In this document: positions 7,539-63,609 of the stretch, in pieces
How the letters are laid out: every line of letters begins with the position of its first letter
Position numbering within the stretch: the first letter of the stretch is position 1
Origin: a virus
Strand: one strand, 5' to 3'
Virus record (IMG/VR): IMGVR_UViG_3300028901_000317
Coordinates: 10,155 to 74,154 of that record
Length of the DNA: 64,000 nt
Notes under the pieces: model-generated
Seen by the model: the letters and a program-made list of their open reading frames with translations, nothing else
Databases searched by the model: none
What the model was told of the DNA's origin: nothing
Translations under genes and position numbers: made by a program

Positions 7539-7888
7539 GAAGCTGGGTTCAAGGCCTTTCGATTTAGACCACGTTCAAGATACCGACTTGGGTACCGCTC
7601 GAACGAAATGGGCAACAAAGAAACGCTCCGCCCGAACCAATCTTCGCTTCGATCTGTTCTTCCGAAATCGTCCAGGTTGCAGCCTAAGACGCTACTTCTC
7701 AAGTTTTCCCGTGATCGAGGTGCGGGCTCTGTCTGCTTCGGAAACCGGGGTAATCGCTCACCCCCGTGTGTGCCAGCCCCGGTGGGATGGCGAGCGAAAC
7801 CGCGGCATAACTGGCACCCATGTGAAGACTCCCCTTGGAGGCACTACCCGGCTTGTTGCCGGTGGATGCCGTCCACGGAGAGTCCACT

Positions 7889-9451: not shown

Positions 9452-9728
9452 AATCCCGCGTCGGCCGCCGGCCACCGTGACGTCGGCGGGAAGGCAAGCA
9501 AGCCGCCCTCCCGGCAGACACGGAGTCGGCGCCGACGTGAGCGCAACTGGCCTCCATGGAAAGACTGGTCCGAACACCGGGCCGCGCACCCCACGGTGAT
9601 TGGGCGCGGCGGGACAGACGAGTCCCGCCCGCCCAGTCCCCGAGGATGGTTCAAGCGGCGGCTGGTGGGCCCTGATCCAGAGTCTTTGGCACTCGCACGT
9701 CCGTGATGAACCAGAAAGAGGTGGCCCC
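9452..9728 (+). other. Conserved structured non-coding spacer, copy A
   Basis: Aligns with 56941-57223 despite frame-breaking indels; long hairpin at 9598-9638. Confidence 0.55.
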
Positions 9729-12121: not shown

Positions 12122-12419
12122 ATGGTCAGAGGTCATTGATCGACCTCAGATACCTGGCGCTTCACCTCCGCATGCATGCGTCAACGCTCGCCGAATTCAC
12201 TCAGGTTGCTGAAACCGCGTCAGACTCGCGGGATGGTTCCGTCTGACAGGGGCGACCCATCGTGCTTCAAACTTCAGGTACGACGGCTCCGACTGTGGCT
12301 GTCGCGTCCCAGACCTTTGTGTTGACCGTCACACTCGTTTAGACTTGCCACCCAAGCTCGCCCGCCTTTGCGTGATCGAACGCGTAGCCAAACGGGCTTG
12401 AAGCGGAGGGTCAATCGCG

Positions 12420-13496
12420 ATGCAACGGGAATGGTGGGCTCAGGAACCTTGGTGGGATGACCCAAAGACAGCACAAATGCTCGGTTGCAGCTTGACGGAC
12501 CTTCGGATCGCGGCTGATCACATGATGCAGCACTTTGGACGCGATTGGTGGTCGACGATCAAGGTGCGGCATCGCCCTCACCCCCTGGCTCAATCTTTGT
12601 TAGCACGAGGATGGGTCGCCGCTCACGCCATCTGGTCGGTGGGTTGGCAGGTCCACCAGCTCAATGGCTGCGAAGGATTCGCGTCAAAGCTCCGCGAGCT
12701 GAAAGAGGGCGATAAGGCCGAAAGTATTCGCTTCGAAATGCACGTTGCAGAACTGCTTGTACGGCGCGGTTACCACGTCACATTTCCGCGTGAGCAAGCG
12801 GTCAAGACGCCGGACATTCTGGCCAGTCGAAACGATCGCGTCGTCGCGGTCGAGTGCAAAAAGCTTGGGAAGAGCGATGTTGATCAGTGGGCACGGGGAT
12901 TGATGAGCCTCGCCTCACTCGACCTTCCACATCACGGCAATCCGGATCTCGACATTGAGCTTGCGGATGATCTCACGTTTCTAAGAATGGACAAGCCTAG
13001 ATGGAATGACGAGCTTTTGACAGCACTCCACGACCAGATGCGATCGTCGCTACAAACGGCGCTTGAACGATTGACTCCCCCCTGTCAAATCTCGATCCAC
13101 GGCATCGCACGGGTTTCGATCAAGCCGAGCAAAACCGGAATGGGCTCTGTGTCGGGCGGACCGCAATGGCCAGCGGCTGATCTTCGTCGCGTTGTGGAAT
13201 ACGTGTTCAAGTCGTGCGAAAAGTTCTCAACAGAAACACCTGGAGTCTTGGCGTTTCAATGCGAGCTCTCGCCTGGTGCCGCGTTGCTCAAGGCAGTTAC
13301 CACAGCAATCGAACGCTCAGCCGATCCATCCGAGTTCATCGATCGACTCGGGGGAATCGTAATGGTTCCTTTGATGCCCGCCGGCCCGTGGGGAAAGCCG
13401 GTCGCGAGCGAATGCTCAGGCCACGCGTCAAATCCACTTGTCGGGGATGTGCTCGGCGCTCTGACAGACGTGAATGCCCACCGCAGTTTGGAGTGA
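12420..13496 (+). CDS. Hypothetical protein with PD-(D/E)XK nuclease-like motif, copy A
   Basis: FEMHVAELL...KTPDILAS...VAVECKK; close paralog at 59743-60798. Confidence 0.65.
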   Translation: MQREWWAQEPWWDDPKTAQMLGCSLTDLRIAADHMMQHFGRDWWSTIKVRHRPHPLAQSLLARGWVAAHAIWSVGWQVHQLNGCEGFASKLRELKEGDKAESIRFEMHVAELLVRRGYHVTFPREQAVKTPDILASRNDRVVAVECKKLGKSDVDQWARGLMSLASLDLPHHGNPDLDIELADDLTFLRMDKPRWNDELLTALHDQMRSSLQTALERLTPPCQISIHGIARVSIKPSKTGMGSVSGGPQWPAADLRRVVEYVFKSCEKFSTETPGVLAFQCELSPGAALLKAVTTAIERSADPSEFIDRLGGIVMVPLMPAGPWGKPVASECSGHASNPLVGDVLGALTDVNAHRSLE

Positions 13497-13513: not shown

Positions 13514-14257
13514 TCATCGGCTACGTGATTCGGATTCCCCGGGCTCAAGACCGGTGGTGGGTCGATCCGAACGGACCAGCATTTGACGAGCCCAATCGCG
13601 CCATCGCTCGGTGTCACCTCGGAATGCAATCGTCTGCAGAGCCTCCATCGACTTGGCATCCTTCTTACCCACTTTGCACTGCAGTCGTGTCAGTGCCTGA
13701 ATCGTCTGGATGTGCTCAGGACTCACTTCAAGGGCAGTGCGATACGTGCCGATCGCTTCGTCAATGTGTCCGGCTCGCTCCAGCGTGAGCGCGAGATTCA
13801 TCCGCGGATCGGGGTTCCCCGCCATGAGCTTGCGTGCCCATTCAAACTCCCCCGCTGCTTCATAGAGCATCCCGCGATTGAGGAAGACGACACCCAGGTT
13901 GTTGTGCGCCGGACCGTGGTACAGATCTGCCGAGAGCGCGTCGCGCAGCAATCGCTCGGCCTTGGCATCGTCAATGCCGATCAGATCGGCAGCCTCGCGT
14001 GTGAGTTTTTCGGCTTGGAGCGGACTGCGTTCCTGCTCCTTCATTTCTGCGTAGGGTCCGCGTACTGACGAGGCGCACCCGGCCATCCCGAGCGGCCCCG
14101 CGCCTGCGAACAGAGCACCAGTTGCAACTACAAGTGCCCACCACCAATCGGCGCCCCCGCACACCATGCGCACGACGGACCGCACAGCCTGAATCGCCGT
14201 CCCAAGCGGTTGGCTTTGCCGCGATCCACCCGGTGAACTGGTCTTCAAAGTTTTCAT
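13514..14257 (-). CDS. TPR lipoprotein, pilotin-like (PilF/PilW type), copy A
   Basis: Lipobox-like LGMAGC; TPRs HGPAHNNLGV, PRMNLALTL. Start trimmed to MKTLK because the longer ORF overlaps the upstream gene. Confidence 0.75.
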   Translation of the reverse strand: MKTLKTSSPGGSRQSQPLGTAIQAVRSVVRMVCGGADWWWALVVATGALFAGAGPLGMAGCASSVRGPYAEMKEQERSPLQAEKLTREAADLIGIDDAKAERLLRDALSADLYHGPAHNNLGVVFLNRGMLYEAAGEFEWARKLMAGNPDPRMNLALTLERAGHIDEAIGTYRTALEVSPEHIQTIQALTRLQCKVGKKDAKSMEALQTIAFRGDTERWRDWARQMLVRSDRPTTGLEPGESESRSR

Positions 14258-14334
14258 GGCACTTTGCTTTGGTTTGAGCAGTTTGGCGAACCCAGAATAG
14301 CAGGACGTGACGACCCCGCGAGCGTGTGTTCCGA

Positions 14335-14952
14335 TCACCGCAGCTCTGCCGATGCACGACCTCCCGTAGCGGGCACCGGTGGTGAAGCGGCGCTTCCCAC
14401 ATCGATGCCGCCGCGCGGCCGAGTGTCTACAAAGGATGTCATCGAACAACTGACGCGATACCCGCGCGAGCGATCCATGGGAGATGCGGTCCGGGTCAGG
14501 TCGAGCCGCGAGATGGTCCACAGCGGCTCACGCTCGCGCCACGCCGCCAGAAAGCGTCCCAGCTCGTGGGGCTCAAGGCCATCAAGGGTGATACGAAACC
14601 CACGCCGCACGTACCCGCTGGGCGTAGAACTCTCCGCATCTGCGACCGTGTCCCGCAACACGCTGGAATTCAGTCCGGCCCTCTGGAGCACCGCCGTCAC
14701 CAGTGTTGACGCGTCCAGGCGCGCGTGAGCATCGTCGCTCCCTTGCGCAACGGGCGCGAGTTCGGCCAGCCTTGCGTACGCCGCCGCCGTGGTTGCCACC
14801 TGCACGCAGGATTCGGCTGCTTCGCCCCGGCGTCCAGAAGCGTCGGACGCCAGCGCCCAGCCTCGCCACAACAGCGCCAGCATCACGCCGCAGGCAACCA
14901 TGCTCAATGGCACCGAATTCGAGAGTGCTCCAAGGCGCCAGAATCGCGTCAT
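14335..14952 (-). CDS. GspM/PilO-like inner-membrane protein, copy A
   Basis: N-terminal TM followed by a ferredoxin-like segment (GFRITLDGLEPHELGRFLAAW...ISRLDL); position in the operon. Confidence 0.6.
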   Translation of the reverse strand: MTRFWRLGALSNSVPLSMVACGVMLALLWRGWALASDASGRRGEAAESCVQVATTAAAYARLAELAPVAQGSDDAHARLDASTLVTAVLQRAGLNSSVLRDTVADAESSTPSGYVRRGFRITLDGLEPHELGRFLAAWREREPLWTISRLDLTRTASPMDRSRGYRVSCSMTSFVDTRPRGGIDVGSAASPPVPATGGRASAELR

Positions 14953-16025
14953 TGGCCACCTCCGGGTTGCCCAGCCGACTGTGCACGTGAAATCGCGCCA
15001 AGCGTCGCGGCCCCTCGTCCCTGTCCCGGCGTCGGCACCGCAGCACGCGACGCTGCGGCTTTGGGTTGGGCCGGTGTGTCGCGATCGATACGCACAAGGG
15101 TGGTCCGCACCGTCGCCCGGTCGCCGGCCATCGAGATCTGCGGCTGCTCAAGTGACCATCCCGGCACCGTCCGCAGCGCCTCGGTCAGCTTTGACGCGTC
15201 ATCGAGCGCGCCCACAGATCCAACCAGCCGCACGCTCGACTCGCCCACGGAAAGCGATTCGATGCGCGTTTCCACCGTCCGGGGCCAGGCACGCAGCACA
15301 TCCTGGAGCGACAGTCCCGCATCCTCGGGACGCTGAGCGCGGATCCCATCGCCCCGCTCGCGAAGCAACGCCGAGTATGCCAAGGCAAGCCGCGCCGGCG
15401 AATCCGTGGACGACCCCGCCTGAGACAGTTGTTTCTCGAATCGCCCGGGCATGAGGGACTCGGCAGGATGCAGGTCCAGGGCCTGCCTCGCGATCTGATC
15501 CTGAGCTTCGAGAAGTCGGACACGCGCTTGAGCCCCCGACCACGCTCGCACGTGGAATCCAACCGCCGCCAGGCCCAGCACCACCGCGGCACACCACAGG
15601 CCCGCCGCGGTCACCGCCGATCGCGCCCGGCGAACAATCCGAGGCTCGTAGATCCCGTGCAACAGATTCAGTTGGCCGATCACCCCAGGCGGCACCATCT
15701 CACGCAGATGCGATGGTGCCGACGCGGGCCCAAGCGTCTGCGCCTGAACATCCAGTGTGTCGAGATCGGCGCACAGCGCGACGCATGCGAGCGAGCCAAG
15801 GCCCGGCACCTCCACCAGCGTCGTGTGGTAGAGCGTCGAGTCGATGGGGATCGCTTCGGAAATCTGCTCGGCCAAGTCTGCGGCGAGCGGCCCGCGCTCC
15901 CGCCGTGGCGCCCCGGGAAGCCCGACATCACGGTCTGGGATCAAAACCCAGTAGAAGCGCTCCGCAGGCCAGCGCAGATAGATCTGGCCATCGTTCATCG
16001 AGTGACCATCACGCGGAGCGCTCAT
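14949..16025 (-). CDS. GspL/PilN-like protein, copy A
   Basis: Central TM; PilN-like IESLSVGESSVRLVGSV...LTEAL...WSLEQPQI; overlapping starts and stops with neighbours. Confidence 0.62.
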   Translation of the reverse strand: MSAPRDGHSMNDGQIYLRWPAERFYWVLIPDRDVGLPGAPRRERGPLAADLAEQISEAIPIDSTLYHTTLVEVPGLGSLACVALCADLDTLDVQAQTLGPASAPSHLREMVPPGVIGQLNLLHGIYEPRIVRRARSAVTAAGLWCAAVVLGLAAVGFHVRAWSGAQARVRLLEAQDQIARQALDLHPAESLMPGRFEKQLSQAGSSTDSPARLALAYSALLRERGDGIRAQRPEDAGLSLQDVLRAWPRTVETRIESLSVGESSVRLVGSVGALDDASKLTEALRTVPGWSLEQPQISMAGDRATVRTTLVRIDRDTPAQPKAAASRAAVPTPGQGRGAATLGAISRAQSAGQPGGGQ

Positions 16026-16615
16026 CGGGTGTCACCTCCGCCAAGCGACCCGAAAGCGGCTCCAGCAGACGAAGGTTCACGGAGAGTGAGACGCTCGACA
16101 CGAGTTCCGTCGACAAACTCGATGTTCTCCCGCGTCAGTCGGCGGATCAGGAACGGCTTGACCGTGTCACCCTGGGCAACGAGCAGCACTCGGTCGGTCT
16201 CGGGGTCGTACAGACAGGCTCGCAGCGGCGAGTCCGCGGTCCCGTCGCCTGCAATTCCAAGAAGCTGCAGCTTGAACGGGGGCGGAGGCGGTGGCGGAGG
16301 GACGGCGACAACCGCATTCTTGAGCGGTGGCGGGGTCCAGAGCGCGACCTGGAACGCCTCGGCATCCAGCGTAGCTGGCGGCCGCGGATCAGTGGCCGAG
16401 CGTGCTCTTGGCCCCGGGTTCTCCCGCGCTGCGCCCGCTGATGGCACACCCGCCGCGTAAACATCGTCATACTGAGGAGCGATGAGCGGCCACACGACCC
16501 AGAACGTTGCGACGAGCGCGACCGCAGCGCCCGCGATCAGCACGCGCCGCCGCCGCCGCTGCAAAAGCGAGAGCGGATCGTTGAGCGGGCTGATGATGGT
16601 TTCAGACGATGTCAA
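16022..16615 (-). CDS. GspC/PilP-like protein, copy A
   Basis: TM, polyproline linker, LQLLGI...ACLYD...VAQGDTV beta-domain. Confidence 0.6.
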   Translation of the reverse strand: MTSSETIISPLNDPLSLLQRRRRRVLIAGAAVALVATFWVVWPLIAPQYDDVYAAGVPSAGAARENPGPRARSATDPRPPATLDAEAFQVALWTPPPLKNAVVAVPPPPPPPPFKLQLLGIAGDGTADSPLRACLYDPETDRVLLVAQGDTVKPFLIRRLTRENIEFVDGTRVERLTLREPSSAGAAFGSLGGGDTR

Positions 16616-18336
16616 ACATCCTCCACACCGCTGATGACACGTTCGACTTCCAACGCCGTCGTCTGGCCCAGGTCGATCAAGCGACGCCCTTCGTCGAGCA
16701 GCGTCCTCATTCCAGCGGCTCGTGCCACGGTCTTAAGCTCGGCACCCGTGGCACCGCGCGTGAGCAAGGTCCGCAGCGCATCGTTGACGACGAGCAGCTC
16801 AAACACTCCGACGCGTCCCAGAAACCCCGAATGCAGACACTCGGCGCAGCCGCTCCCGGCGCACCTGGCGTGGACACGCCGCACCAGACGCTGCGCCAGC
16901 ACCGCCGACAGCGACGAGGCGACCAGGTACGACTCGACTCCCAGATCCACCAGCCGCGTGAGCGCCCCCGCCGCGTCGTTGGTGTGCAGCGTCGAGAGTA
17001 CCAGGTGTCCCGTGAGACTGGCCTGGATCGCGATCCGGGCAGTCTCCGTGTCGCGGATCTCCCCCACCATGACCACGTCAGGATCCTGGCGCAGGATGTG
17101 GCGCAGGCCCGACGCGAAGGTCACGCCTTTCTTGAGATTGACCTGCGACTGGCTCACAGCAAGTCCCGCGGTGGAGAGCTCGTACTCGATCGGGTCTTCC
17201 ACTGTCATGACGTTGAGCTCGCCCGCGACGCGGGCCATTGTTCCCGCGGCGCCTCGCGGGGAGCCGCCTTGGCCGAATGATCCGTCGCCCGCGACCCACC
17301 GCAGCGCGGCGTAGAGCGTGGTTGTTTTGCCCGAGCCCGTCGGACCAGTCACCAGCACGATGCCGCTGGAACGGTTGACGCGTTCGAGAAACCCCGACTG
17401 CACATCGGCCGGCATGCCCAGTGATGCAAAGTCTTTGAGATGCTCTCCCCGTGTGTTATCCAGCAGCCGCACTACTGCCCGCTCGCCGTAACTGGTCGGG
17501 ATCGTGGAGATCCGCAGGTCCACGGCTCGTCCCTCGCGCGGGGGTGCCGAGCCGCCCTCGCCCGCCGCTTGGCGCACTTCTGCCCCGCCGATAGAAACCG
17601 TCGCACGTCCGTCCTGTGGGGCGCCGCGTTCTGCGACGTCCATGCCGCCCATGACCTTGATCCGGCTCACCGCTGCAGTGGCTACAGAGGCGGGAAGCTC
17701 ACGCGCGGTTTGCAATACCCCGTCGACGCGGAAGCGGACGAGTGTCCGGTCCGCCAACGGCTGGATGTGCACGTCGCTCGCCGAGCGCGTGAGAGCCTCA
17801 AAGAGTAATCCGTCGACCAAACGCACCATCTCGGCCTTGCCCTGGGTGCGGAGCAAGTCACGCTCGCCCGCTCCCTCATCCGCGTCGGTGGACGCGAACT
17901 CGCTCGCCGCGGCGTCCTCGGGCCCGTAACAGCGATCGATCGCCTGGGCGATGTGTTCGGCCGGTGCGGGAACGAGCTTTATCTTTCTCCCGAGTCGCAC
18001 GCCCAGGTTGTGGAGGATGCAGCCGTCGATGTCGGCCGGGGCCGCGACCCACTCGATCGGGCGACCGGCAGAAGCATCGGAACGATCGAGCGCGCGGGCC
18101 CCATCCTCCCCGCGTCCACAGCTCAGCACCAGATAACGGCGTGCAAAGCGCCGCGGGATGAGCGAAAGAAACTCCGCCGACGGTGTGGCCGCCAGCACGT
18201 CGACCTCCGCAACGGTGATACCACCGTTTGGAAGTGCCGCGTCGGGGCTCAAGGTTGGATGCTCTGGGTCCACCGTGCACGTTCCTCTTGCGGACTGATC
18301 GCTTGCAGTCGCTCCGATCTGTCCGCTCCCCGCCAC
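16612..18336 (-). CDS. gspE: Type II secretion/type IV pilus ATPase (GspE/PilB)
   Basis: ASDVHI, RFRVDGVL, TGPTGSGKTTTLY, TVEDPIEY, LRQDPDVVMVGEIRD, TGHLVLSTLHTND. Confidence 0.95.
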   Translation of the reverse strand: MAGSGQIGATASDQSARGTCTVDPEHPTLSPDAALPNGGITVAEVDVLAATPSAEFLSLIPRRFARRYLVLSCGRGEDGARALDRSDASAGRPIEWVAAPADIDGCILHNLGVRLGRKIKLVPAPAEHIAQAIDRCYGPEDAAASEFASTDADEGAGERDLLRTQGKAEMVRLVDGLLFEALTRSASDVHIQPLADRTLVRFRVDGVLQTARELPASVATAAVSRIKVMGGMDVAERGAPQDGRATVSIGGAEVRQAAGEGGSAPPREGRAVDLRISTIPTSYGERAVVRLLDNTRGEHLKDFASLGMPADVQSGFLERVNRSSGIVLVTGPTGSGKTTTLYAALRWVAGDGSFGQGGSPRGAAGTMARVAGELNVMTVEDPIEYELSTAGLAVSQSQVNLKKGVTFASGLRHILRQDPDVVMVGEIRDTETARIAIQASLTGHLVLSTLHTNDAAGALTRLVDLGVESYLVASSLSAVLAQRLVRRVHARCAGSGCAECLHSGFLGRVGVFELLVVNDALRTLLTRGATGAELKTVARAAGMRTLLDEGRRLIDLGQTTALEVERVISGVEDV

Positions 18337-18345
18337 CCGATCCCA

Positions 18346-20736
18346 TCACCGGATCACCCGCGGCTCCACCACCGGCCAGCCGTCGTCGATCGCCGCGCGT
18401 CCCGCGTCCTTCTCCGACACATACTTCAGATCGCTGAATGTCGCATCGCGCATCACGTTCGCGCGGATGAACACGAAGAACTTGGTCTTGGTGGTACCCG
18501 TGCTGCGGTTCTTGAAGAGTTCCCCAAGCAGCGGGATATCACCCAGGAGCGGCACACGCTTGTCGGTGTCCGATTCTCCCGTCAGTTCCAGGCCGCCCAC
18601 CACCACCGTGTGCCCATCTGGAATCGTCGCGGTGCTGCTCACGTTGTTCTGCTGGCGCGGCGGGGGCAACCCATTGGACCCACTCCCGCTGAACGAACTC
18701 AACGTCAGCGAATACTGCAGCACCAGGTGATCACCCTCGGCGATCTGCGGCCGCACCTGGATCGTCGTTCCCGCATCCTGCGTCCCGCCAAACGTCGTCG
18801 TCGTCACCTGGCTGCTCGACGCATTGGTCGTCGCAAACGGCTGTTGCAACACCGATGAGAAGTTCGCTGTCTCGTTGTTGTTCACCAGCACTTTGGGCAA
18901 ACTCAGCGATCGCCCGCTCGTCACCGTCTCCAGCGCTTTGACAATCACACTGAACTCGCCGGGGTTAAGCACCGAAGCGGTCCCGCCCGCGCTGTCGCCC
19001 ACCACACGCGTGTTGCCCGAGGCAGACGACAATCCAAACAGGCTTGCCAACCGCACGTTTGCATTGCCGATCGAGGTCAGCCGCTCAAGCTCTATTCCCA
19101 AGTCCCGGCTCTGTGACTCACTCAGGCTCACCAGGTACGCCTCGAGCATCACCTGCGGTTGCCGCACATCGAGCGACTTGATCAGGTCCTCCAATTGGGT
19201 CAGCCGCCGTGGTTCTGCAATCGCAATGAGCGTGTTCGTGCCCTCATCGGCGGTCAGCGTGAGATCGCTCCGCGTGCCGCTGCCACTTGGACCCGTTGCC
19301 ATGATGTTTTTTCGTCCGCTCTGCGTTGATCCTGCCGATCCGCCACCCGATGAACTCGTGTTCGATGCGCCGGCCATTGTCAGCGGAGATGTTTGTCCAC
19401 CCGGGCCCGCACCGTTGAGCGGCACAGATGCCGAACGCTGGCTCAGAGGTGCGTTGCCAACGTTTGTGCCTTGGGGCGATCCATCGCTCCCCTCGAGCGC
19501 GCCCGCATCAATGAGTTTCGACAATGTCCCCAGCACATCACCCACCGGGCGATTGCGGATTGGGTACGACTTCATCGGCCTCGGCCCGCCGCGCGGCGAG
19601 CTTTCCAGCCGCTCCAGCAACTCCACCACCTGCGCGTGCTGCCCCGGCGTCGCCGTGATGATCAGGCTCCCTGTGAGCTCATCCTGCACCACTTTCCAGC
19701 GATCATCCGCGCCGCTGCCGCTTGCTCCGCCGGTACCCGTGGGTCTCACTGCCTGATCGAGCAGTGCGGCGACATCTCGAACAGAGAACACACGCGGCGA
19801 ATACGTCGTGGTGACCACGCCTTCTCTGCGATCCAGTTGCGCGACCAATGCCTTCCAATAGGCCGCGTGCTCGGGCGGGCACACAAGGATGACGCTCCCA
19901 CCACCCGGTGCGGCGATCAGGTCTCCCGGTGTGCGGCCAGTGCCCGCGTTTCCTGCAACTGCACCCACCGCCGACGCGTCACGCTTGCCACCAATCTGAT
20001 TCGCAAGTGACACGAGCGCCGCGGCGGAGATGTTTTTGAGTGGGATCTCGTCCACCAGACCCGCTTCAGTTGGACGATCCAGCCACGCGAGCAACCGCTT
20101 GGCATCCGCGATGCGTGGCGTCAAATCGGCGATCATGAGCAAGTTTTTACCGAGCGGCGTTGCGGTTGAACCAGTCTTGCTGAGCACCAACTTCACAGCA
20201 TCGGCCGCATCTTTTGGCGCGAGATGCTCTAGCCGCACAACATCGGCGGTGAAGCCTGCTGACGGACCTCCAAGAGCAGCTGCATCCGACCTGCTCGCCT
20301 GAGCATTTTCTTCGAGCGTTATTGGTGTCGTGTTGCCCGTCAGTTGCGCTTGCTCGACGAGTGCGGGCAACCCGCCGAGCCCCGCAAGCGCGGCGGCCTC
20401 TTGCAATCGAACAACCGAATACGTCGCCGCGCCCGGCGGCCGCACCGTCGTAAACCCACGCGAGGCCAGTAACTGATTTGTGAGTTCCCACAGTTGCTCG
20501 CCGCTCATCGCCTCCAACCCGCGCAGCGCGACGGTGCCTTTGAGCACTGCGGGGTCGTACTCCACCTTCACCGCCAGCCGCGCCGCTGCGAGATCGACGA
20601 GGCGGGGGAGCTCGAGTTGCGAAGCAAGTTGGATGTCTGTGGACTTCGGAGGCTCAGCCATCACCCAAACTGGCACGCTGATGCAAAGCACAGCCGAAAC
20701 CGCGGCCCAACGCGATCGCTTGCGGCGATTGAACAT
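18346..20736 (-). CDS. gspD: Secretin (GspD)
   Basis: Signal peptide, repeated N domains (TLIAIAEPRRLTQLEDLIKSLDVRQPQVMLEAYLV), secretin C-terminus GHTVVVGGL...RVPLLGDIPLLGELFK. Confidence 0.92.
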   Translation of the reverse strand: MFNRRKRSRWAAVSAVLCISVPVWVMAEPPKSTDIQLASQLELPRLVDLAAARLAVKVEYDPAVLKGTVALRGLEAMSGEQLWELTNQLLASRGFTTVRPPGAATYSVVRLQEAAALAGLGGLPALVEQAQLTGNTTPITLEENAQASRSDAAALGGPSAGFTADVVRLEHLAPKDAADAVKLVLSKTGSTATPLGKNLLMIADLTPRIADAKRLLAWLDRPTEAGLVDEIPLKNISAAALVSLANQIGGKRDASAVGAVAGNAGTGRTPGDLIAAPGGGSVILVCPPEHAAYWKALVAQLDRREGVVTTTYSPRVFSVRDVAALLDQAVRPTGTGGASGSGADDRWKVVQDELTGSLIITATPGQHAQVVELLERLESSPRGGPRPMKSYPIRNRPVGDVLGTLSKLIDAGALEGSDGSPQGTNVGNAPLSQRSASVPLNGAGPGGQTSPLTMAGASNTSSSGGGSAGSTQSGRKNIMATGPSGSGTRSDLTLTADEGTNTLIAIAEPRRLTQLEDLIKSLDVRQPQVMLEAYLVSLSESQSRDLGIELERLTSIGNANVRLASLFGLSSASGNTRVVGDSAGGTASVLNPGEFSVIVKALETVTSGRSLSLPKVLVNNNETANFSSVLQQPFATTNASSSQVTTTTFGGTQDAGTTIQVRPQIAEGDHLVLQYSLTLSSFSGSGSNGLPPPRQQNNVSSTATIPDGHTVVVGGLELTGESDTDKRVPLLGDIPLLGELFKNRSTGTTKTKFFVFIRANVMRDATFSDLKYVSEKDAGRAAIDDGWPVVEPRVIR

Positions 20737-21031
20737 GCGTCAAGACTATCGAACCGTTCCGCATTCGTCCAGCCGCTCGACGAGCGAAGACAGGGCCCGA
20801 CCGATCGCGTCGAATTCTCCGAGCTTCCAGCTGAAACATGCTACCAGACCGGCAACGATGATTTGTGTTAAGTTTGCGTCAATCGACCAAGTTATGCAGA
20901 GCAATCGTTTGACAGCCGAAGCGATTGTGGAAAAGTTGAGCAGTGTTGCTTTTCACTGCAACCATGAGTTTGACGAGGCTGTACGGATGTGATACACCAA
21001 GTGTCGAATCGGTTGCACGAAAGGAAACCCG

Positions 21032-24000
21032 ATGCACTTCAGTCGTCAAGCAAGTCGCGCGTTCTCCACATCACTCACGCTGTTGCTCATGGGAACGCCA
21101 GCACTTGGTCAGCAGGACTGGGCAACTGCTCCTGGCGGAATCGCAAAGGCACCCGAATCCAATGAACCCTCTCGAGGTGGCTGCGCGAAGGGTGACCTTG
21201 CTGCGATTATGCGACGGATCAACGATCTCGCCCAGGCGCATGGGGGGCAACCGCAGGATTCGGGCTCGCGATCGCCTGACAGGGACGAAAAGTGTAAGGA
21301 TGACAAGGACGGCGATGGCGGGGGTGGCGGCAAAGACGGCGATGATGAGGCTGGCGAAGGAAAACAAAATGCTGGTGGGGGAACGCCCGCTCCTTGGAAT
21401 CCCGCGGATGGCTTCTGGGGAGACATGATTGATGATCCGGCATTCCTCGAAGCACTTTTGGACGAGTTGTTTCGACGAATGCGCGACTTACTGCTTGATC
21501 CGCGGGATACTGGCTGTCCACGATATACCGTCACTGATCCTCAGGCATACTACAACTCGATACGCAAGGGCCTAGGCGACCAAGCGTTTCCCCCAGGAAC
21601 CCACTGGGATGGCTTGGTGCCGGATGAAGACCCTCCAGTGCAGAAAGAGCAGGACCCGTGCGAACGGATTGGCATTTTGAATCAAATGTGCGACACTGTC
21701 GCGAGCGACGACTCGTGGCCGTATGTTCATCCCGAAACCCCGCCGCCTTCGCTGGTCGGACCCGCTGCGCAGCCCTACGACTCGTCCCCAATTGCCTATC
21801 GGAAAGTCAGAAAAGGCATTCCCTCTCGACCAGACACCGTCGTTGATAAGTATCGATCGTGTTCACAGTGTCCACCCGGTGATGTGGTTGTAGATTTGAA
21901 CGGCCTACAAGTGCTTTTGCCGCTTGGGAGTGACAGCCGGGGCGACCTGGGTTACATCCTCATGCGCTCTGATACCTTGCTAGGTGGCGACGAGGACGTC
22001 GTCTATGGTGGCATTATCGAGTCGCTCTCCGCATCAAGTGGCGGAGGCCACGAAGTGACGCTTGGGCCAGGTGCTGCAGAAGTCGCGACTCGCAACATTA
22101 TTCAACTTGAGCTTGATCGCTCTATTTCTGCCGTTGACAAAGAGGCGATTTACGAGCCGATCGTGTCCGGGCAAAATGTCCAGCGCCCCATTCGGCAGCT
22201 ACGTGTTAAAGATCTGTATGTGGACTTTAAATCTGGTGGCTGGTCAGATCCTTGGAAATTCGCGATCCGTTTCTACAAGCTTCCAGTCCAGCCTCCAATG
22301 GCAGCGTCCCCAAACGAGTACTTGTACAACTTTGTGAACGAGTATGGTGCTCCCTTGGTACCGTACAAGGAGCTCCATTTCTATTTCAGCATGACTTGGA
22401 TGCAGCCGTCAAACGCAAACTCGCACGACGACGAGATGGTTCCAGCACCTCCGGCAACTGTGGACCCTTGGGGTATCTTCCGCGTTACTGGTAGTTTTAT
22501 TTGCGACGAGGTCGTCGGGGGCCAGCTGCGGCATCGCAACGAGTTTCGGCAGAGCCTTAACATCCAGCAGGTCAACCCTGCTCCTTCGAACCTTCCGCCT
22601 GCTCAAAGGTTTCAGTCGCTTGGTACTGAGACATGGAGCCTGATTGAAGGGAACAAGGGTTCACCAACTTATCGCAAAACGAGCTTGTATTACGGTAGTG
22701 AGTTCGAGTCCATCGGCGGCGGCCAAAGTCGGCTCCTTACGAGCGAGCGTAAGCTAATTTGGGGCAACGACGCTCAGCCTATATCAGACGAAGTGACTTA
22801 TTTTCGTTGGTTCCCGGAATGGCCGGCGACCTCCCCCTGGAGTAATGGTTGGCTCGCCGCTTCTCAAGTGTCGTCATACCCGTATGCTGGGCCGCGCCAC
22901 TGGAGCGACGAGTTGCTCTTGCGCGTTAAGGAGCCAGCGAGACACGTTACTGATCCCGATGGTGCAAATCTCGTCACGACATGGGACTATGACGGGGACC
23001 CCGGCCTGGAAAATGAATCGTCTTCGCATCACATTACTGGGCAGACAGCCCCATCCGGACATTGGGAACGCTACATCTATGACTCTCACGGTTGGCTGAT
23101 CAAAAAGGTATCTCAGTACCTTGACCATACTGAGGCACAAGGCGAGAGCCAAAACCGCGTCGAGCGGTTTGGCCGCTCCAACAGCGTCGCGCTTTTCTCA
23201 GTGGGTAGCGGATCTGATACGACGCCTGAACAAATCACATGGCGCACCGAAGAAGTCATGGGCTCCGAAGTTGCCCGATCATTCACGATCAACTGGGCCA
23301 ATACCGTCCAGCTCGACGGGAATGGTGACCCAATCCCGACGCCTGATGACGTCACGGAGATTCGCTGCGCGCCCGACGCAACAGGTCGATTCGCGCTGCC
23401 GAACGACACGGCGCTAAAAACATGGCTTGAGTCCGTTCTCACCGATCCATTTGCGACACCGCACCTAGTGAGTCACGAGCGACGCTTCAGCCGTGACGAA
23501 GTCCAGCAGCCCTGGCTGCGCGGCCGGTTGGATGTCCGACTCGAATCGAACGGGACCGTGACGAGATACTTCCACCGCAGCTATCCACTGCCCTCCGGCA
23601 GCACAGCACCAACGCTCGCGGACTACGGTGTCTTCCAGCCGCCAAGCGGTCAGCCACTGAGTCAAGTTCAAGCGCAGGTCATCCGTATGGTCAAAGGCCC
23701 CGCGGCTTTGACGGGTTGCTTCCCGCTCAAGCCGGGCGCGAACTTGATGCCGCGCGATGGCATAATTACGGTGAAGGTCGAAGGCCCGAGCGGGCAGGTC
23801 CTCTTGCGCGAAACACGTGACCTTCAGGGTGCGCTTGGCGCTGGCAATAGCCGCCTGGATGTCCAGCACAATGCATCGGGCCCTGCGTCGTGGCCGGACA
23901 CGCTTGTCACTTCGCGCACAGTCGCGACGAACTGGACGACGGATGCGTTCGGCAGGCCGACCGAGTTCACCGCTCTTGATGGAAGCCTTGACACACGCAC

Positions 24001-27000
24001 GTTCAGTGATTGCTGCGGGAGTGGCACGGATACCGACGCAACGGGTCTCACAACGCTTACCACCAAAGACCAGCTTGGGCGAGTGACGATGGTGACCAGC
24101 GCGCTGGGCACACCGGCACAGCAGTCGACGATTTACGAGTACGATGCACTGGATCGGACGATCAAAGCGATACGAGTTGGCGCTGACGATTCAACGATGC
24201 TCCAGTCGGAAACCGGCTACGACGTCGCAGGCCGTGAAGCTTGGACCAAGGACCAGCTTGGCGACACCACCAGTTTCGCGTACACGCTCGCCGCAGGCTC
24301 GATTACGAACACCACGACAATGCCCGACCCCGACGGCACGGGTCCACTCGCCGCCCCTGTGAGTATCGACGTCGCGTATCCCGACGGTCACGCGAAAGAG
24401 ACTTCCGGCACGGCGGTCCATGCGACGCGCATGGAGTACGGCGTGGAAACCGATGCTGCGCTCGCAGGCGGCACGCCGGTATTGTTCACCAGGTCGATCC
24501 GGCTTGGTGACGGTTCTCCCGCCAACACGGATGCGTGGTCCAAAACTTACACCGACTCGCTGGGTCGGGGCTATCGTTCCACCTCGCCCGCCGCAGACGG
24601 CACCACCACGATCCTTGAATCGCGCAGCACTTTTGGCACCCGCGGCCGGTTGCTCGCGTCCATTGACGCGTCTGGTGTCAAAACGCTCCGCCTCGAAGGC
24701 CATGGCCCCGAAGAGGCACCGGCCAGCTCCGGTACCACCGACTGGGCAGGTGACTGGACGATTCAGGCTCTCGATGTGAACGGCAATGGCGTCATCGACT
24801 TCGGCGTCACCGCTACCGATCGCATCAGCCGCTCGCGTTCTTTTACGACCCAACGCACCGACGGCAGCGTGGTGTCCACGGTGCAACGCTCCGTGTCCGA
24901 TGTCTGGGATTCCAGCGGCACGCCGTACGTCATCACCACATCGACCAGCGATTCCAGCGTTGACGGGCGGAAGTCATGGTCCGCCAGCTTCGGCGTGCTG
25001 ACCAATTCGCGGTCAAGCGATGATGCGCCAACATCCACCAGCACGCAGGTTTCCGTCAGCCCGGACGGCAACGAATCCGTCAGCATCAGTCAGTATGGAC
25101 GCCCGATTTCCGCAGCGAACTACATCGGCACCGTCGCCAGCGGCACGCTGCAGGCAATGGTGACATACACCTACGACGCCCACGGTCGTCAGATCAAAGT
25201 CACCGACACGCGTGGCACACCCACCGACACTTCCGATGATCGCGAAACCATCGCCACCTACGACAACGCCGATCGCGTGCTCACCGTGACCAGCCCGCCC
25301 GCCGAGGTGGGTCAGCCATCGACTGTCGTCACGAATACTTACGATGCCCTTGGACGCGTGACGCGCACAGAGTCTCAGACTGGCGGCGTCGAGACGAATA
25401 TCACGACCAACACCGAGTACTACCCCACCGGTGAAGCCAGCAAGATCTGGGGTGGCGAGTCCTACCCGGTCGAATACACCTATGACGCTGTGGGCCGGAT
25501 GAAGACGCTCAAGACCCGCCAGAAGTCACGCGACCTGGACAACACCATTTCTCAGGTTGTCTCTGACTCCACCGCCGCTGTCACAACCTGGAACTATGAC
25601 TCCAAGTCCGGTCTATTGCTCCAGAAGCTCTACCCGCACGCGACCACCGCCGGTGCGACGGGAGTCGGGCCGAGCTACACCTACTTTGCGGATGGCAAGC
25701 TCAAACGCCGCACGTGGGCGCGTGGTGCCTACGCAGATTACATCTACAGCGCCAACACAGGCGAACTTCTTTCCGTTACCTACAGCGATGGCACGCCAAC
25801 CGTCACGTACGAGTACGACCGTCGCGGCCGCGTGAAGTCACTCATCGACGGGGCGGGCACGCGCTCGTTCGAGTATGACGTGTCCGATCAACCCAAGGTG
25901 GAGCAATACACCGCGGGCATCCTCAACGGGCTCAAGACGACGATCAGTTACGACGCACAACTTCGCCGTTCGATTTACCAGCTCACTATGGGCACTGGGG
26001 CCAACAACACGCGCGCCTACAACGTGCTCGGGTACGACGCACTTTCACGTTTGAGTACTGTCACGCGAGGCAGCTTCGTCACCACATACACCTACAAGCC
26101 GCACTCAAGCCTCCTGTCCGGCCTGCAACACACCGCCGGGGCGATCACGACAGGCTCGGCAGCCTACACCCACGACAATCTCGATCGCGTCAAATCCCTG
26201 ACGTGGACCATGAACCCGGGCGGCACCCCGACCACCGATGCCTTCGCCTATCGCTACGACGCCAAGGGGCACCGCGATCGCGCGACCGACCCCGATGGGA
26301 GTTACTGGAAGTTCCAGTACGACACGCTCGGCCAGGTCACCAGCGGTCGCCGCTACATGCCCGCAGGCGTCGCCCAATCCGAGGATGACGATCTGGACGT
26401 GCCGGGCTATCGCTTCGGCTACAGCTTCGATCACATCGGCAACCGCACAGCCACGACGGCGACGGACGGCGTGCCCAGCTTCAGCACGCTGCCGCGCCTG
26501 GCGACATATTCGGCGAACCTGCTCAACCAGTACACCGAGCGGACGGTGCCGCGCGTGCTGGATATCGCGGGGTACGCCCCCGGCACGTTGACGGTGGACA
26601 GCCAGGCGGTGTGGCGGAGCGGCTTGGCCGCGCCGTACGACCAGTACTACTGGTTCCCCAAGGAGTGGCCGAGCGTGAACTCCGCTTTCGCGGCGGGCGT
26701 TACGGTGTCGCATCTGGCCCAGCCGTTGAATGTGTTCCTGCCGGCCACGCCCGAGCAGTTCACGTATGACGCGGATGGCAATCTCACCCAGGACGGACGT
26801 TGGAACTATTCCTGGGACGGGGAGAATAGACTGGTGGCAATGGAGGTCCGCGACGAGCTCAAGCCGCTCTTTGCTCAGCCGTTGCGGCTGCAGTTCAGTT
26901 ATGACAGCCAGCACCGCCGCGTCCGCAAAGTGGTGCTGGTGCCCAACCCGCCGAGTGGCGGCGGCGGCACTGGAAATGCGAATTCTGGTGGGGGTGGTGG

Positions 27001-28237
27001 CGGGAACATCGAGGAAAATCCTGAGGTGCTCACGCCATCGGGAATGACAGGCATCGATGAAGGTGCCACAGAGATCGAGCCCGGCACGACACTGGCCTCA
27101 ACAATCAACGTCGGTTGGACCGTGATCACCGACATCCGCTTTGCGTGGGATGGGTGGCTGCTCTCGGCCGAGTTGAACAATTCGGGCGGCCTGATCCGCG
27201 GCTACTGCTGGGGCATCGACCTGTCGGGCTCGCGCGGCGGCGCGGCCGGCATCGGTGGCCTGCTCTACACCCAAGACGGCGGCAATGCGCTCACAAACTC
27301 CAACATCCGTTACGTCACCAGCGATAGCCGCGGTGACGTGCGGGCTGTGTACAACAGCTCCGGTACGCTCCAGGCCCGCTTTGAGTATGGTCCGTTTGGT
27401 GAGCCCACGGCCGTCGCGGGCTCGGCAAGCTCCAGTTTCCCCATCCGCTTCAGCAGCAAGTACGCCGATCAGGAGACGGGGTTGAGTTACTTTGGACGGC
27501 GATACGTTTCAGCAAGTGTCGGTCGGTGGCTAAATCGAGACCCGGTCGAAGAAGCTGGATCGGTTGGACTCTCAACGTTTGTAAACAATAATTCACTAAA
27601 TGCGATTGACCCGACTGGAATGTGGGGGACACCTGTTCACCACGCGATGGTAGACGACTGGCTCGACCCGTACTTGCCGTCAACTGACTATTCTCAACAT
27701 CCTTGGGGGTGCGACAAAGTCGATGTCAAACAAATTCTAAAGGATAATAGCGACCTGGTGGACGGCGAAAATCAACCATCCGGCCCCATAGCATTTCTTG
27801 GGGCACAAGGTACGGCAACTGCATACGAGCATGCAATGTCCGCCGGCAGCGAGCCCAAATCGGCAGCCCAGGCAAAATATAATTCGTTTGTAAACACGCA
27901 TGTTGCAGCTGCTTATAACAAAGGTCGTAACGCGAGAAAATTGCTTCAAAATAAAAAATCTGCGGAGTCATTGAGCGAGATAAAGTCTGCAGTGGCGGAG
28001 TTGGGACAAGTGTTTCACGCGTTTACCGACAAAATGTCACCATCCCATTCCGGCTTTCAGCCCTGGTACGGGCCTTACGATGGCCCCATGGCGATGGGCG
28101 CGTTTGCTTACGGTGTGTATACCTATAACCACTTTATTGGGGAAACACTCGCAGTTTACTCAGCTTCTGCTGCAAGCCATGTTGCGGATCTAAATCAAGT
28201 TATGTTCCCCAAACTGAAGACGCTTCTACGAAAGTAA
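21032..28237 (+). CDS. RHS/YD-repeat polymorphic toxin with Sec signal peptide and Zn-hydrolase-like C-terminal tip
   Basis: N-terminal LTLLLMGTPALG|QQ; many YxYD repeats; core RFEYGPFG...DQETGLSYFGRRY...GRWLNRDP...DPTG; lower-GC tip after about 27600. Confidence 0.93.
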   Translation: MHFSRQASRAFSTSLTLLLMGTPALGQQDWATAPGGIAKAPESNEPSRGGCAKGDLAAIMRRINDLAQAHGGQPQDSGSRSPDRDEKCKDDKDGDGGGGGKDGDDEAGEGKQNAGGGTPAPWNPADGFWGDMIDDPAFLEALLDELFRRMRDLLLDPRDTGCPRYTVTDPQAYYNSIRKGLGDQAFPPGTHWDGLVPDEDPPVQKEQDPCERIGILNQMCDTVASDDSWPYVHPETPPPSLVGPAAQPYDSSPIAYRKVRKGIPSRPDTVVDKYRSCSQCPPGDVVVDLNGLQVLLPLGSDSRGDLGYILMRSDTLLGGDEDVVYGGIIESLSASSGGGHEVTLGPGAAEVATRNIIQLELDRSISAVDKEAIYEPIVSGQNVQRPIRQLRVKDLYVDFKSGGWSDPWKFAIRFYKLPVQPPMAASPNEYLYNFVNEYGAPLVPYKELHFYFSMTWMQPSNANSHDDEMVPAPPATVDPWGIFRVTGSFICDEVVGGQLRHRNEFRQSLNIQQVNPAPSNLPPAQRFQSLGTETWSLIEGNKGSPTYRKTSLYYGSEFESIGGGQSRLLTSERKLIWGNDAQPISDEVTYFRWFPEWPATSPWSNGWLAASQVSSYPYAGPRHWSDELLLRVKEPARHVTDPDGANLVTTWDYDGDPGLENESSSHHITGQTAPSGHWERYIYDSHGWLIKKVSQYLDHTEAQGESQNRVERFGRSNSVALFSVGSGSDTTPEQITWRTEEVMGSEVARSFTINWANTVQLDGNGDPIPTPDDVTEIRCAPDATGRFALPNDTALKTWLESVLTDPFATPHLVSHERRFSRDEVQQPWLRGRLDVRLESNGTVTRYFHRSYPLPSGSTAPTLADYGVFQPPSGQPLSQVQAQVIRMVKGPAALTGCFPLKPGANLMPRDGIITVKVEGPSGQVLLRETRDLQGALGAGNSRLDVQHNASGPASWPDTLVTSRTVATNWTTDAFGRPTEFTALDGSLDTRTFSDCCGSGTDTDATGLTTLTTKDQLGRVTMVTSALGTPAQQSTIYEYDALDRTIKAIRVGADDSTMLQSETGYDVAGREAWTKDQLGDTTSFAYTLAAGSITNTTTMPDPDGTGPLAAPVSIDVAYPDGHAKETSGTAVHATRMEYGVETDAALAGGTPVLFTRSIRLGDGSPANTDAWSKTYTDSLGRGYRSTSPAADGTTTILESRSTFGTRGRLLASIDASGVKTLRLEGHGPEEAPASSGTTDWAGDWTIQALDVNGNGVIDFGVTATDRISRSRSFTTQRTDGSVVSTVQRSVSDVWDSSGTPYVITTSTSDSSVDGRKSWSASFGVLTNSRSSDDAPTSTSTQVSVSPDGNESVSISQYGRPISAANYIGTVASGTLQAMVTYTYDAHGRQIKVTDTRGTPTDTSDDRETIATYDNADRVLTVTSPPAEVGQPSTVVTNTYDALGRVTRTESQTGGVETNITTNTEYYPTGEASKIWGGESYPVEYTYDAVGRMKTLKTRQKSRDLDNTISQVVSDSTAAVTTWNYDSKSGLLLQKLYPHATTAGATGVGPSYTYFADGKLKRRTWARGAYADYIYSANTGELLSVTYSDGTPTVTYEYDRRGRVKSLIDGAGTRSFEYDVSDQPKVEQYTAGILNGLKTTISYDAQLRRSIYQLTMGTGANNTRAYNVLGYDALSRLSTVTRGSFVTTYTYKPHSSLLSGLQHTAGAITTGSAAYTHDNLDRVKSLTWTMNPGGTPTTDAFAYRYDAKGHRDRATDPDGSYWKFQYDTLGQVTSGRRYMPAGVAQSEDDDLDVPGYRFGYSFDHIGNRTATTATDGVPSFSTLPRLATYSANLLNQYTERTVPRVLDIAGYAPGTLTVDSQAVWRSGLAAPYDQYYWFPKEWPSVNSAFAAGVTVSHLAQPLNVFLPATPEQFTYDADGNLTQDGRWNYSWDGENRLVAMEVRDELKPLFAQPLRLQFSYDSQHRRVRKVVLVPNPPSGGGGTGNANSGGGGGGNIEENPEVLTPSGMTGIDEGATEIEPGTTLASTINVGWTVITDIRFAWDGWLLSAELNNSGGLIRGYCWGIDLSGSRGGAAGIGGLLYTQDGGNALTNSNIRYVTSDSRGDVRAVYNSSGTLQARFEYGPFGEPTAVAGSASSSFPIRFSSKYADQETGLSYFGRRYVSASVGRWLNRDPVEEAGSVGLSTFVNNNSLNAIDPTGMWGTPVHHAMVDDWLDPYLPSTDYSQHPWGCDKVDVKQILKDNSDLVDGENQPSGPIAFLGAQGTATAYEHAMSAGSEPKSAAQAKYNSFVNTHVAAAYNKGRNARKLLQNKKSAESLSEIKSAVAELGQVFHAFTDKMSPSHSGFQPWYGPYDGPMAMGAFAYGVYTYNHFIGETLAVYSASAASHVADLNQVMFPKLKTLLRK

Positions 28238-28241
28238 GCCA

Positions 28242-28769
28242 GTGACAAACAAAACACTTGGTCATAGATTGGCGACATTAGCAATTACTGTCGCTGCGTT
28301 GATTCTCAGTCTTTGGACATTCATTCATTGCCGCTGGGAGATTGGCTCGATCCCTGTCCACTCTTCCACAGGTGTCGTTCGAATTGAAGAACAACACAGC
28401 TGGCTTCAACGGTTTGGGATCCACAGCGCTCCCCTTCGCAGCCTAGTAATCGGCCAGGAACGATATCCAGGATTAAAAGGGGAGCCTCCCTGTAACTTTT
28501 CAACTAACATGTATGATTTGTATGTCACAGAAAATTCAGGAGTTTCAAAAGTAATTGTTGTAGATAAACTATCTCCAAGGACACTTGTTTGCAATGGCCC
28601 TAGCACAAGTTTTGGGGCGACGTTTGGTTTACGTGGTGCGTCTAGCGGATACACTGGGACGTTGGTAAGCGAGTCTCATGATAAGATTGTCATCCGACGA
28701 ACTGTCGGAAGTGTCAATTCAGTTGTGGTAATTGATCTCGCTAACGGTTCATTTGTAGAGCAGTATTAG
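28242..28769 (+). CDS. Putative RHS immunity protein with N-terminal membrane anchor or signal
   Basis: Starts 4 nt after the RHS stop, shares the low GC of the tip, hydrophobic LATLAITVAALILSLWTFI. Confidence 0.65.
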   Translation: MTNKTLGHRLATLAITVAALILSLWTFIHCRWEIGSIPVHSSTGVVRIEEQHSWLQRFGIHSAPLRSLVIGQERYPGLKGEPPCNFSTNMYDLYVTENSGVSKVIVVDKLSPRTLVCNGPSTSFGATFGLRGASSGYTGTLVSESHDKIVIRRTVGSVNSVVVIDLANGSFVEQY

Positions 28770-46538: not shown

Positions 46539-54898
<8,360 letters not shown>

Positions 54899-60798: not shown

Positions 60799-60838
60799 AT
60801 GCCCATCGCGACTCGTTTCGACAAGCCGCTCGTCCACG

Positions 60839-63592: not shown

Positions 63593-63609
63593 TTGGTTTC
63601 GCCGCTCGC

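Follow-up and report, generated by a model that had tools for sequence, protein, structure and literature searches.

We analyzed a stretch of 64,000 nucleotides (here referred to as the window) that corresponds to positions 10,155 to 74,154 of the IMG/VR record IMGVR_UViG_3300028901_000317. Within the window a reduced type II secretion system (T2SS) cluster, here named the cassette, is located next to a divergently orientated giant gene of the RHS toxin family. Judged from the sequences compared in this study, the cassette would represent a module derived from a T2SS and dedicated to exporting the adjacent, Sec-delivered RHS toxin across the outer membrane, and we assign a probability of about 0.6 to this reading. 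It is carried by the identities of the components GspD, GspE, GspC and GspL, by the conserved loss of the genes gspF to gspK, and by the conserved pairing with RHS genes whose products start with a Sec signal. That the RHS protein is the cargo, as well as every mechanical step of its export, we infer.

The record is designated as a provirus, was cut from a bioreactor metagenome contig and has a total size of 74.5 kb. Its host is an uncultured planctomycete of the class Phycisphaerae. The sequencing runs found to hold the stretch were DNA runs of one bioreactor study only.

Composition of the cassette and the divergent RHS gene

The cassette consists of six genes which are arranged with near-zero spacing on the minus strand (13514–20736) and encode a secretin, an ATPase, a C-like, an L-like and an M-like protein as well as a TPR protein. 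This layout and the Pfam and profile scans agree with the first-pass annotation, made from the sequence alone, which had described six overlapping or abutting genes between the TPR gene and the secretin, none of them resembling GspF, a prepilin or a prepilin peptidase. Pfam matches of the cassette proteins were restricted to Secretin/Secretin_N, T2SSE and TPR families.

The secretin (18346–20736, minus strand, 796 aa) is of the GspD type and comprises a signal peptide, three Secretin_N stretches and the secretin domain (Pfam Secretin 6e-33, Secretin_N 3e-28). Its best NCBIfam model was type_II_gspD with 240 bits vs 142 bits for PilQ, while the gspD equivalog cut-off of 351 bits was not reached. 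The gene of the GspE-type secretion ATPase (16612–18336, minus strand, 574 aa; Pfam T2SSE 2e-106) begins 9 nt past the secretin stop codon. Here too, type_II_gspE (456 bits) scored above PilB (372 bits) without reaching the equivalog cut-off. The Walker A motif, Asp box, Walker B motif and His box were conserved to approximately 100% in 90 homologues.

The following three genes, coding for proteins of 197, 358 and 205 aa, successively overlap by 4 nt each. The 197-aa protein (16022–16615, minus strand) contains a transmembrane helix, a Pro-rich linker and an HR beta-domain, but no PDZ domain. On the sequence level it matched NCBIfam GspC_delta with an E value of only 0.055. The best PDB match of its AlphaFold model (pLDDT 80) was 3oss_C, the GspC HR domain bound to GspD (TM score by target 0.72), followed by PilP and PulC-HR, and 6hcg_e was also among the GspC-HR fold matches. 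When the model was compared to Swiss-Prot models the top 9 matches were all GspC. By its predicted fold the protein is therefore GspC-like with an HR domain and without a PDZ domain, and binding to the secretin is a prediction.

The 358-aa protein (14949–16025, minus strand) is composed of a shortened cytoplasmic domain, a transmembrane helix and a periplasmic ferredoxin-like domain. Its AlphaFold model (pLDDT 82) retrieved T2SS protein L for all of the top 6 Swiss-Prot models (OutL, XcpY, XpsL, PulL and EpsL; E 5e-9 to 4e-7), and the periplasmic domains of XcpY, EpsL and PulL from the PDB. Additionally, a profile search of PDB sequences ranked the GspL chain 4pht_X first (E 0.013). The model identifies the protein as a GspL whose cytoplasmic domain is shortened. 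The 205-aa protein (14335–14952, minus strand), consisting of an N-terminal transmembrane helix and a periplasmic domain, showed a weak match to NCBIfam T2SS_GspM_XpsM (E 1.3e-3, profile positions 14–174 of 180), and its gene holds the position of gspM after that of L in full and reduced clusters alike. Profile searches of PDB sequences with the M-like and C-like proteins gave no meaningful match. A type IVa PilMNOPQ module was ruled out, since the secretin scores higher with GspD than with PilQ, the 358-aa protein fits a fused GspL better than PilN/PilO, and there is no PilM.

The last gene encodes a pilotin-like TPR protein with matches to Pfam TPR families, predicted to be an outer-membrane lipoprotein. 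The longest open reading frame (ORF) spans 13514–14521 on the minus strand; however, the probable true start is M89 at 14257, resulting in a protein of about 247 aa (13514–14257) and a gap of 77 nt to the preceding gene. Starting from M89, a hydrophobic stretch ends in L-G-M-A-G-C, and the Cys of this lipobox was invariant in 32 homologues (41–70% identity). For this reason start and motif fit a lipoprotein. Small TPR lipoproteins encoded together with a secretin are also found among the pilotins of type IV pili, PilF/PilW/Tgl. In contrast to these, the TPR protein of the window scored far below the family cut-offs (PilW 7e-6, Tgl 8e-4) and its partner secretin is of the T2SS type rather than the PilQ type, the pilotin role being predicted. 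Complex prediction of the TPR protein with secretin residues 480–796 gave a score of 0.60 (best control 0.00), a weak hint of an interaction; 58 of 80 solved complexes and 2 of 110 mismatched pairs attained this mark. The runs shared at least 73% of contacts, with a partner pLDDT of at least 76.

Neither T2SSF (PF00482) nor Peptidase_A24 or N_methyl was matched in any frame of the whole 74.5-kb record. Likewise, profiles of GspF, G, H, I, J and K derived from related full clusters found no match in the record, and a prepilin motif of the G-F-T-L-x-E type was absent from all of its frames. A prepilin peptidase gene is often located elsewhere in genomes, so its absence is weak evidence. The cassette misses three defining parts of the canonical T2SS (the platform GspF, the pseudopilins and the prepilin peptidase), yet it clearly derives from such a system. 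With the canonical T2SS (Gsp/Pul/Xcp/Eps) it shares the GspD-type secretin, GspE, the HR domain of GspC, the GspL fold, a tentatively assigned GspM-like protein and a proposed Sec-dependent substrate. Besides the absence of GspF, pseudopilins G to K and prepilin peptidase, it differs by a GspC without PDZ domain or coiled-coil, the shortened cytoplasmic domain of GspL and a TPR lipoprotein in place of a PulS/AspS-type pilotin. Furthermore, it apparently serves a single giant cargo encoded next to it, and a genome can contain several copies.

The secretin operon and the RHS gene are separated by a divergent intergenic region of 295 bp (20737–21031). An AGGAAA-type ribosome-binding site precedes the ATG of the RHS gene, and scans of the region for sigma-70 promoters and terminators revealed nothing above chance. 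The RHS gene (21032–28237, plus strand) encodes a polymorphic toxin of 2401 aa which can be divided into a Sec-type signal peptide, an orphan N-terminal region of about 600 aa, a YD-repeat shell and a variable tip of 204 aa. The N-terminus, MHFSRQASRAFSTSLTLLLMGTPALG followed by QQ after the proposed cut, carries basic residues, a hydrophobic core of 17 residues, the residues A-L-G ahead of the cut, and small residues at positions -3 and -1. It is predicted to be a Sec-type signal peptide, as the first-pass annotation had proposed from the same features.

Residues 27–640 had no match in Pfam or the Atlas. The repeats were recognized by PF05593 (3e-16) and TIGR01643 (8e-10), and the core by Rhs_assc_core (TIGR03696) at residues 2119–2197 (1.9e-16; 60 bits vs a cut-off of 32.5). 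The core ends with NAIDPTGM followed by W, the motif AIDPTGM being located at residues 2193–2199 in front of the 204-aa tip. Also in line with the earlier description, no PAAR, VgrG, WXG or LXG domain was found by Pfam and NCBIfam; only RHS/YD-type domains were matched, even when E values of up to 1 were allowed (residues 1–1300). Genes of type VI or type VII secretion systems (T6SS, T7SS) or of Tc complexes did not turn up in Pfam scans of about 30 ORFs from the non-exhaustively scanned window.

The 204-aa tip resembles Atlas clusters carrying Zn_dep_PLPC, VWA7_N and Het-C with scores of 0.92–0.96, which are leads and not proof. For toxin tips of the Het-C type, Zhang et al. (2012, PMC3482391) predicted a relationship with phospholipase C and S1-P1 nuclease. 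The tip (27608–28237) starts with WGTPVHH, and self-cleavage after DPTGM would leave an N-terminal Trp. An ORF of 175 aa with an N-terminal transmembrane helix (28242–28769, plus strand) starts 4 nt past the RHS stop codon. It had no family match in Pfam or NCBIfam, and the GC content falls to 0.52 across this stretch. By its position it is a putative cognate immunity protein.

Distribution of reduced and full loci

The secretin family comprises approximately 40 clusters with 42–88% identity, almost all from Phycisphaerae or unclassified Planctomycetota. We surveyed gene tables around seven secretin relatives and 80 loci from species-representative genomes, which were classified with custom-built profiles. 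A total of 69 loci from Phycisphaerae and other Planctomycetota were classifiable, the others being cut by contig ends. Sixty of them were reduced with the composition D-E-C-L-M-TPR, whereas nine were full (D-E-F-G-H-I-J-K-C-L-M-TPR). The full-type relatives thus share the gene order D-E-F-G-H-I-J-K-C-L-M with the canonical T2SS, and in all nine the F–K block is located exactly between E and C. No small pilin-like ORF was found inside any of the reduced cassettes. The reduced state, present in 60 of the 69 loci compared, is therefore a conserved condition and not an assembly gap, and the cluster had rightly been described as a T2SS cluster lacking GspF and pseudopilins; its C and L components are confirmed by fold.

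In the secretin tree the nine full loci formed one clade (SH-aLRT 97), with a single change between the full and the reduced state. The branches of the outgroup are very long, so the tree itself does not give the direction of this change. Since every T2SS relative possesses F–K, the simpler reading would be a single loss of the cognate F–K block from an ancestral full cluster. We propose that this ancestral cluster was already RHS-linked when the block was lost.

The secretin of the window grouped with two loci at 75–82% identity, one of which is reduced (L015) and one cut by the contig end (L001). Both are paired with giant RHS genes. In the first-pass annotation, gspF and pilin genes in other copies of the cluster had been named as an observation that would speak against its interpretation. 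Such genes are indeed present in one clade (9 loci), where they lie inside the operon, but the closest relatives, with secretins of 75–88% identity, do not have them.

Multiple cassettes per genome are common, with 11 of 69 genomes contributing two loci each. In one genome of the full type (G049, which carries locus L039) three full-type GspF genes were found (536–660 bits), indicating that the full RHS-linked T2SS can occur in multiple copies as well.

As essential T2SS genes are missing, the reduced cassettes might be regarded as decaying, functionless remnants of a full T2SS. To this we give hardly any credit, because none of the six genes of the window is disrupted and all are translationally coupled, 60 loci retain this set of six genes across deep divergence, and paralogous copies are maintained. 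Furthermore, neither the catalytic motifs nor the lipobox Cys vary. The near-invariant ATPase motifs of the 90 homologues argue against decay. The cassette is a conserved, functional-looking unit.

Pairing with RHS genes and the surrounding island

Adjacency to RHS genes was counted for the 42 reduced and 6 full loci for which 7 kb or more were available upstream. Of these, 32 reduced and 4 full loci had a divergent ORF of 1600–3300 aa with YD repeats beside the secretin. The remaining flanking genes varied from locus to locus. Five genomes of 3.5–4.9 Mb contained 0–5 RHS core matches each, and 4 of the 11 matches were within about 11 kb of a cassette secretin, for which we estimate a chance expectation of roughly 1%. 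Signal-peptide-like N-termini were recognized in at least 30 of 43 cassette-linked RHS proteins by a strict heuristic, which misses the window's own RHS protein, and in about 37 by eye. Most of these proteins end in DPxG-hydrophobic followed by tips of 110–500 aa, and the tips vary: Tox-REase-5 was found at L001, PT-HINT at L016 and a PLC-like tip in the window. The association of a Sec-signal RHS with a reduced T2SS, initially noticed in the window, thus recurs in dozens of genomes, which suggests more than chance, and it does so across secretins of only 42–88% identity.

Several observations weigh against a dedicated RHS exporter. About a quarter of the reduced loci (10 of 42) had no adjacent RHS gene, and in one cassette-bearing genome (G004) not a single RHS core could be detected. 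The RHS-less loci were searched for another conserved gene upstream, and none was found. RHS proteins and cassettes do not co-diverge, as secretins with 88–92% identity face RHS proteins of only 27–30% identity. In an all-against-all comparison the RHS protein of the window had no BLAST-detectable similarity to those of the closest cassettes. RHS genes are thus swapped between near-identical cassettes without a shared N-terminal domain, leaving no identifiable recognition signal. When five segments of the window RHS protein were searched with phmmer against 42 cassette-linked giant proteins, solely a short match at the core end was obtained. Moreover, the nearest homologue of the window RHS protein (38% identity over the first 1000 residues) is located in the genome of L001 away from any cassette. 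A GspE-type ATPase operating without a GspF-type platform is also not known, and co-mobility in variable islands might account for part of the pairing.

At the level of single loci, the pairs L020/L062, L026/L040 and L015/window have secretins of 75–92% identity facing RHS proteins of 0–30% identity, so that the whole toxin gene and not the tip alone was exchanged. The orphan homologue of the window RHS (L099, contig 50 of G001) lies among HEPN_AbiU2, ArdC-like and ParA-like genes, and the secretin cassette of the same genome faces a different RHS. Because the RHS proteins do not co-diverge with the cassette and the nearest homologue lies off-cassette, the pairing is best described as strong but not obligatory. 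The missing conserved primary-sequence signal fits a T2SS-type recognition of folded cargo, and it is no proof of it.

A second, diverged reduced cassette was found by profile matches at the end of the window (60839–64000, minus strand). It comprises the TPR, M, L and C genes and the start of E, and runs off the record end. Identities between both copies were 71% for TPR, 46% for M, 40% for L, 47% for C and 81% for E. The fast divergence of C, L and M would fit an insulation between paralogous machines or an adaptation to different cargo. An exact-protein look-up for the L-like protein of the second copy found no record. In other genomes, too, an RHS gene lies between a pair of cassette secretins within about 15 kb, namely at L028/L047, on one contig of 29.9 kb, and at G006:C5:355014-369007. 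Tandem cassette-RHS units are therefore not unique to the record of the window.

Both copies follow a methylase-TerS-TerL-nuclease module with 79–88% identity between the copies. The unit at 55144–64000 repeats the module of 7835–13496 (methylase, TerS-like, TerL, nuclease), followed by the second cassette. A terminase-coupled function of the cassette was considered and rejected, as the module adjoined the cassette in none of about 85 other loci. Owing to this absence we assign it, on comparative grounds, to the element in the window and not to the cassette. The surroundings represent a defence island with type I restriction-modification, PIN, IrrE-like, DUF3800 and serine recombinase genes as well as a type I-C CRISPR-Cas system. 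Downstream of cas3 and the type I-C genes (Csd1 at 41309–43135) a CRISPR array spans 46537–54900 with approximately 125 copies of the 32-nt repeat GTCGCCCCTTCACAGGGGCGCGGATTGAAAC. Scanned ORFs of the window from 1 to 37311 comprised terminase, ParB-methylase, recombinase and defence genes, and no portal, capsid or tail family. By its gene content the record looks more like a mobile defence/toxin island or a satellite than a provirus.

In such a setting cassette and RHS gene might be neighbours only by way of variable mobile islands, with the cassette serving another cargo or machine, e.g. as a channel for secretin-less pilus operons of Phycisphaerae. The module in front of both copies within a defence-rich island, the replacement of RHS genes independently of the cassette, the quarter of loci without an adjacent RHS gene and the orphan homologue off-cassette are in agreement with this idea, and secretin-less PilB-PilT-GspF-pilin operons do occur in the same genomes. 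An operon of this kind (L101, G001:C8:8500-28400) contains PilB-like, PilT-like and PilB-like ATPases, a GspF and three N_methyl proteins of 360–390 aa. The ORFs scanned across these 20 kb did not include a secretin. However, the pairing holds at secretin identities of only 42–46%, in both the reduced and the full form and usually divergently from one short spacer. It also stays although each locus has different other flanking genes, and the terminase module adjoins the cassette in none of the about 85 other loci. Finally, the cassette retains its own ATPase and C, L and M proteins, which would be needless for the mere channel of another machine. A vicinity due to variable mobile islands only is therefore unlikely in our view, and we retain the dedicated exporter as the reading to be preferred.

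Fate of the platform and models of export

A profile built from eight full-type GspF proteins was used to trace the cognate platform. In two control genomes with full clusters it scored 536–692 bits. The best score in 47 of 48 reduced-cassette genomes was 165–212 bits, the level of any GspF, and the remaining genome had an intermediate match of 350 bits. Each of the reduced-cassette genomes holds 2–8 distant GspF genes. In five genomes the best matches to the GspF of full clusters were only 22–29% identical. In the genome of the closest relative the best distant GspF sits in a secretin-less PilB-PilT-PilB-GspF-pilin operon. A relocation of the cognate gspF elsewhere in the genome was rejected, since 47 of the 48 reduced-cassette genomes lacked a full-type GspF. 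Going by these profile scores the cognate platform is lost and not moved. Because of this loss, any borrowed platform would have a GspF with 22–29% identity to the lost one, as measured in the five genomes.

For the dedicated exporter we propose the following course. Owing to its Sec signal peptide the newly made RHS protein would enter the periplasm, where it would fold into a YD-repeat shell around a self-cleaved C-terminal toxin tip. The TPR lipoprotein may help the GspD-type secretin to reach the outer membrane or to assemble in it. The HR domain of GspC would join the secretin to the inner-membrane pair GspL-GspM, which in turn would dock the GspE ATPase. ATP hydrolysis might then drive or gate the passage of the folded RHS protein through the secretin to the surface or into the medium. 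Once released, the protein would act as a polymorphic antibacterial toxin, and the membrane-anchored product of the adjacent ORF would protect the producer.

Regarding the missing parts, we tentatively and slightly favour that the module still needs a platform and pilins from one of the 2–8 distant pilus- or T2SS-type systems over a working without a pseudopilus. In the latter case GspE, GspL, GspM and GspC alone would open the secretin or push the RHS protein through it. This possibility appears doubtful to us, even though a good part of the data is compatible with it. The F–K block was lost once and the reduced form subsequently became the majority (60 of 69 loci) and multi-copy; a cognate-type GspF is lacking in 47 of 48 genomes, with best matches of 22–29% identity in five; the ATPase motifs are intact; and pilin-like ORFs are absent from all reduced cassettes. 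On the other hand, every genome checked has 2–8 other GspF genes, parts may be used in trans, and to our knowledge there is no precedent in the type IV filament superfamily for a GspE-family ATPase without a GspF-type partner. Filamentous phages, in which the secretin pIV operates with pI/pXI and without a pilus piston, are a loose analogue. They share with such an exporter the secretin route without pseudopilus or GspF, but pI is a Zot-type membrane ATPase and not a GspE, GspC, L and M are missing, and the cargo is the phage filament. Should platform and pseudopilus indeed both be dispensable, which we regard as rather improbable, the cassette would be a minimal cargo-dedicated "type II-derived" system. 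It would retain the GspE motor, GspL, M and C and the pilotin-like lipoprotein, export an RHS cocoon of about 260 kDa in its folded state, and be multiplied within a genome so that each toxin has a cassette of its own.

The dedicated export route with a borrowed pseudopilus or none, as suggested by the first-pass annotation, thus finds partial support in the reduced T2SS and the recurring RHS pairing. It is weakened by the RHS-less quarter of reduced loci and by the nearest RHS homologue lying off-cassette.

T6SS, T7SS and Tc complexes are the textbook delivery routes for RHS toxins. The corresponding premise of the first-pass annotation, that they are usually linked to these systems, proved to be incomplete, since signal-peptide RHS proteins form a recognized "T2SS/Sec-dependent" class of polymorphic toxins (PMC3482391) and the bacteriocin Bcn-A requires XpsD (PMC7259588). 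For that class, Zhang et al. (2012, PMC3482391) gave no signature genes in the neighbourhood. The type found in the window likewise has a signal peptide, then RHS repeats and a variable toxin at the C-terminus, but differs in having a specific secretin cassette as a conserved neighbour. Bcn-A of Xanthomonas perforans, an RHS family protein of 1398 aa, is found in supernatants and its activity is lost in an xpsD secretin mutant (PMC7259588). Both systems have in common an RHS/YD-repeat antibacterial toxin and an inner-membrane immunity protein, the immunity ORF of the window being putative. However, Bcn-A uses the complete housekeeping Xps T2SS encoded elsewhere, whereas the machine of the window is reduced and located beside the RHS gene. 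In Omnitrophota, very large secreted proteins are encoded beside a conserved T2SS-like locus, in a study whose comparison genomes included Elusimicrobia, Verrucomicrobia and Planctomycetes (bioRxiv 10.1101/2023.11.21.568195). Those loci differ from the cassette in that they comprise over 10 subunits, with gspF and pilin-like genes among them, and their cargo is not an RHS polymorphic toxin. Full-text literature searches revealed no account of Phycisphaerae secretins or of T2SS-like cassettes that lack GspF, and the reduced cassette is probably an undescribed dedicated exporter for RHS toxins.

How signal-peptide RHS proteins cross the outer membrane of Gram-negative bacteria is largely unstudied, apart from the one xpsD-dependent bacteriocin. 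A conserved cassette beside the toxin offers a concrete and testable candidate route for their export.

Type II secretion is considered to depend strictly on GspF and the pseudopilus. The natural lineage described here appears to have lost both, retained an intact ATPase together with GspC, GspL and GspM, and then spread widely. This would imply either cross-talk between very distant pilus-type systems or another coupling of ATP hydrolysis to the secretin. Furthermore, C, L and M diverge fast between paralogous copies and RHS genes are freely swapped, which may both bear on the evolution of secretion specificity.

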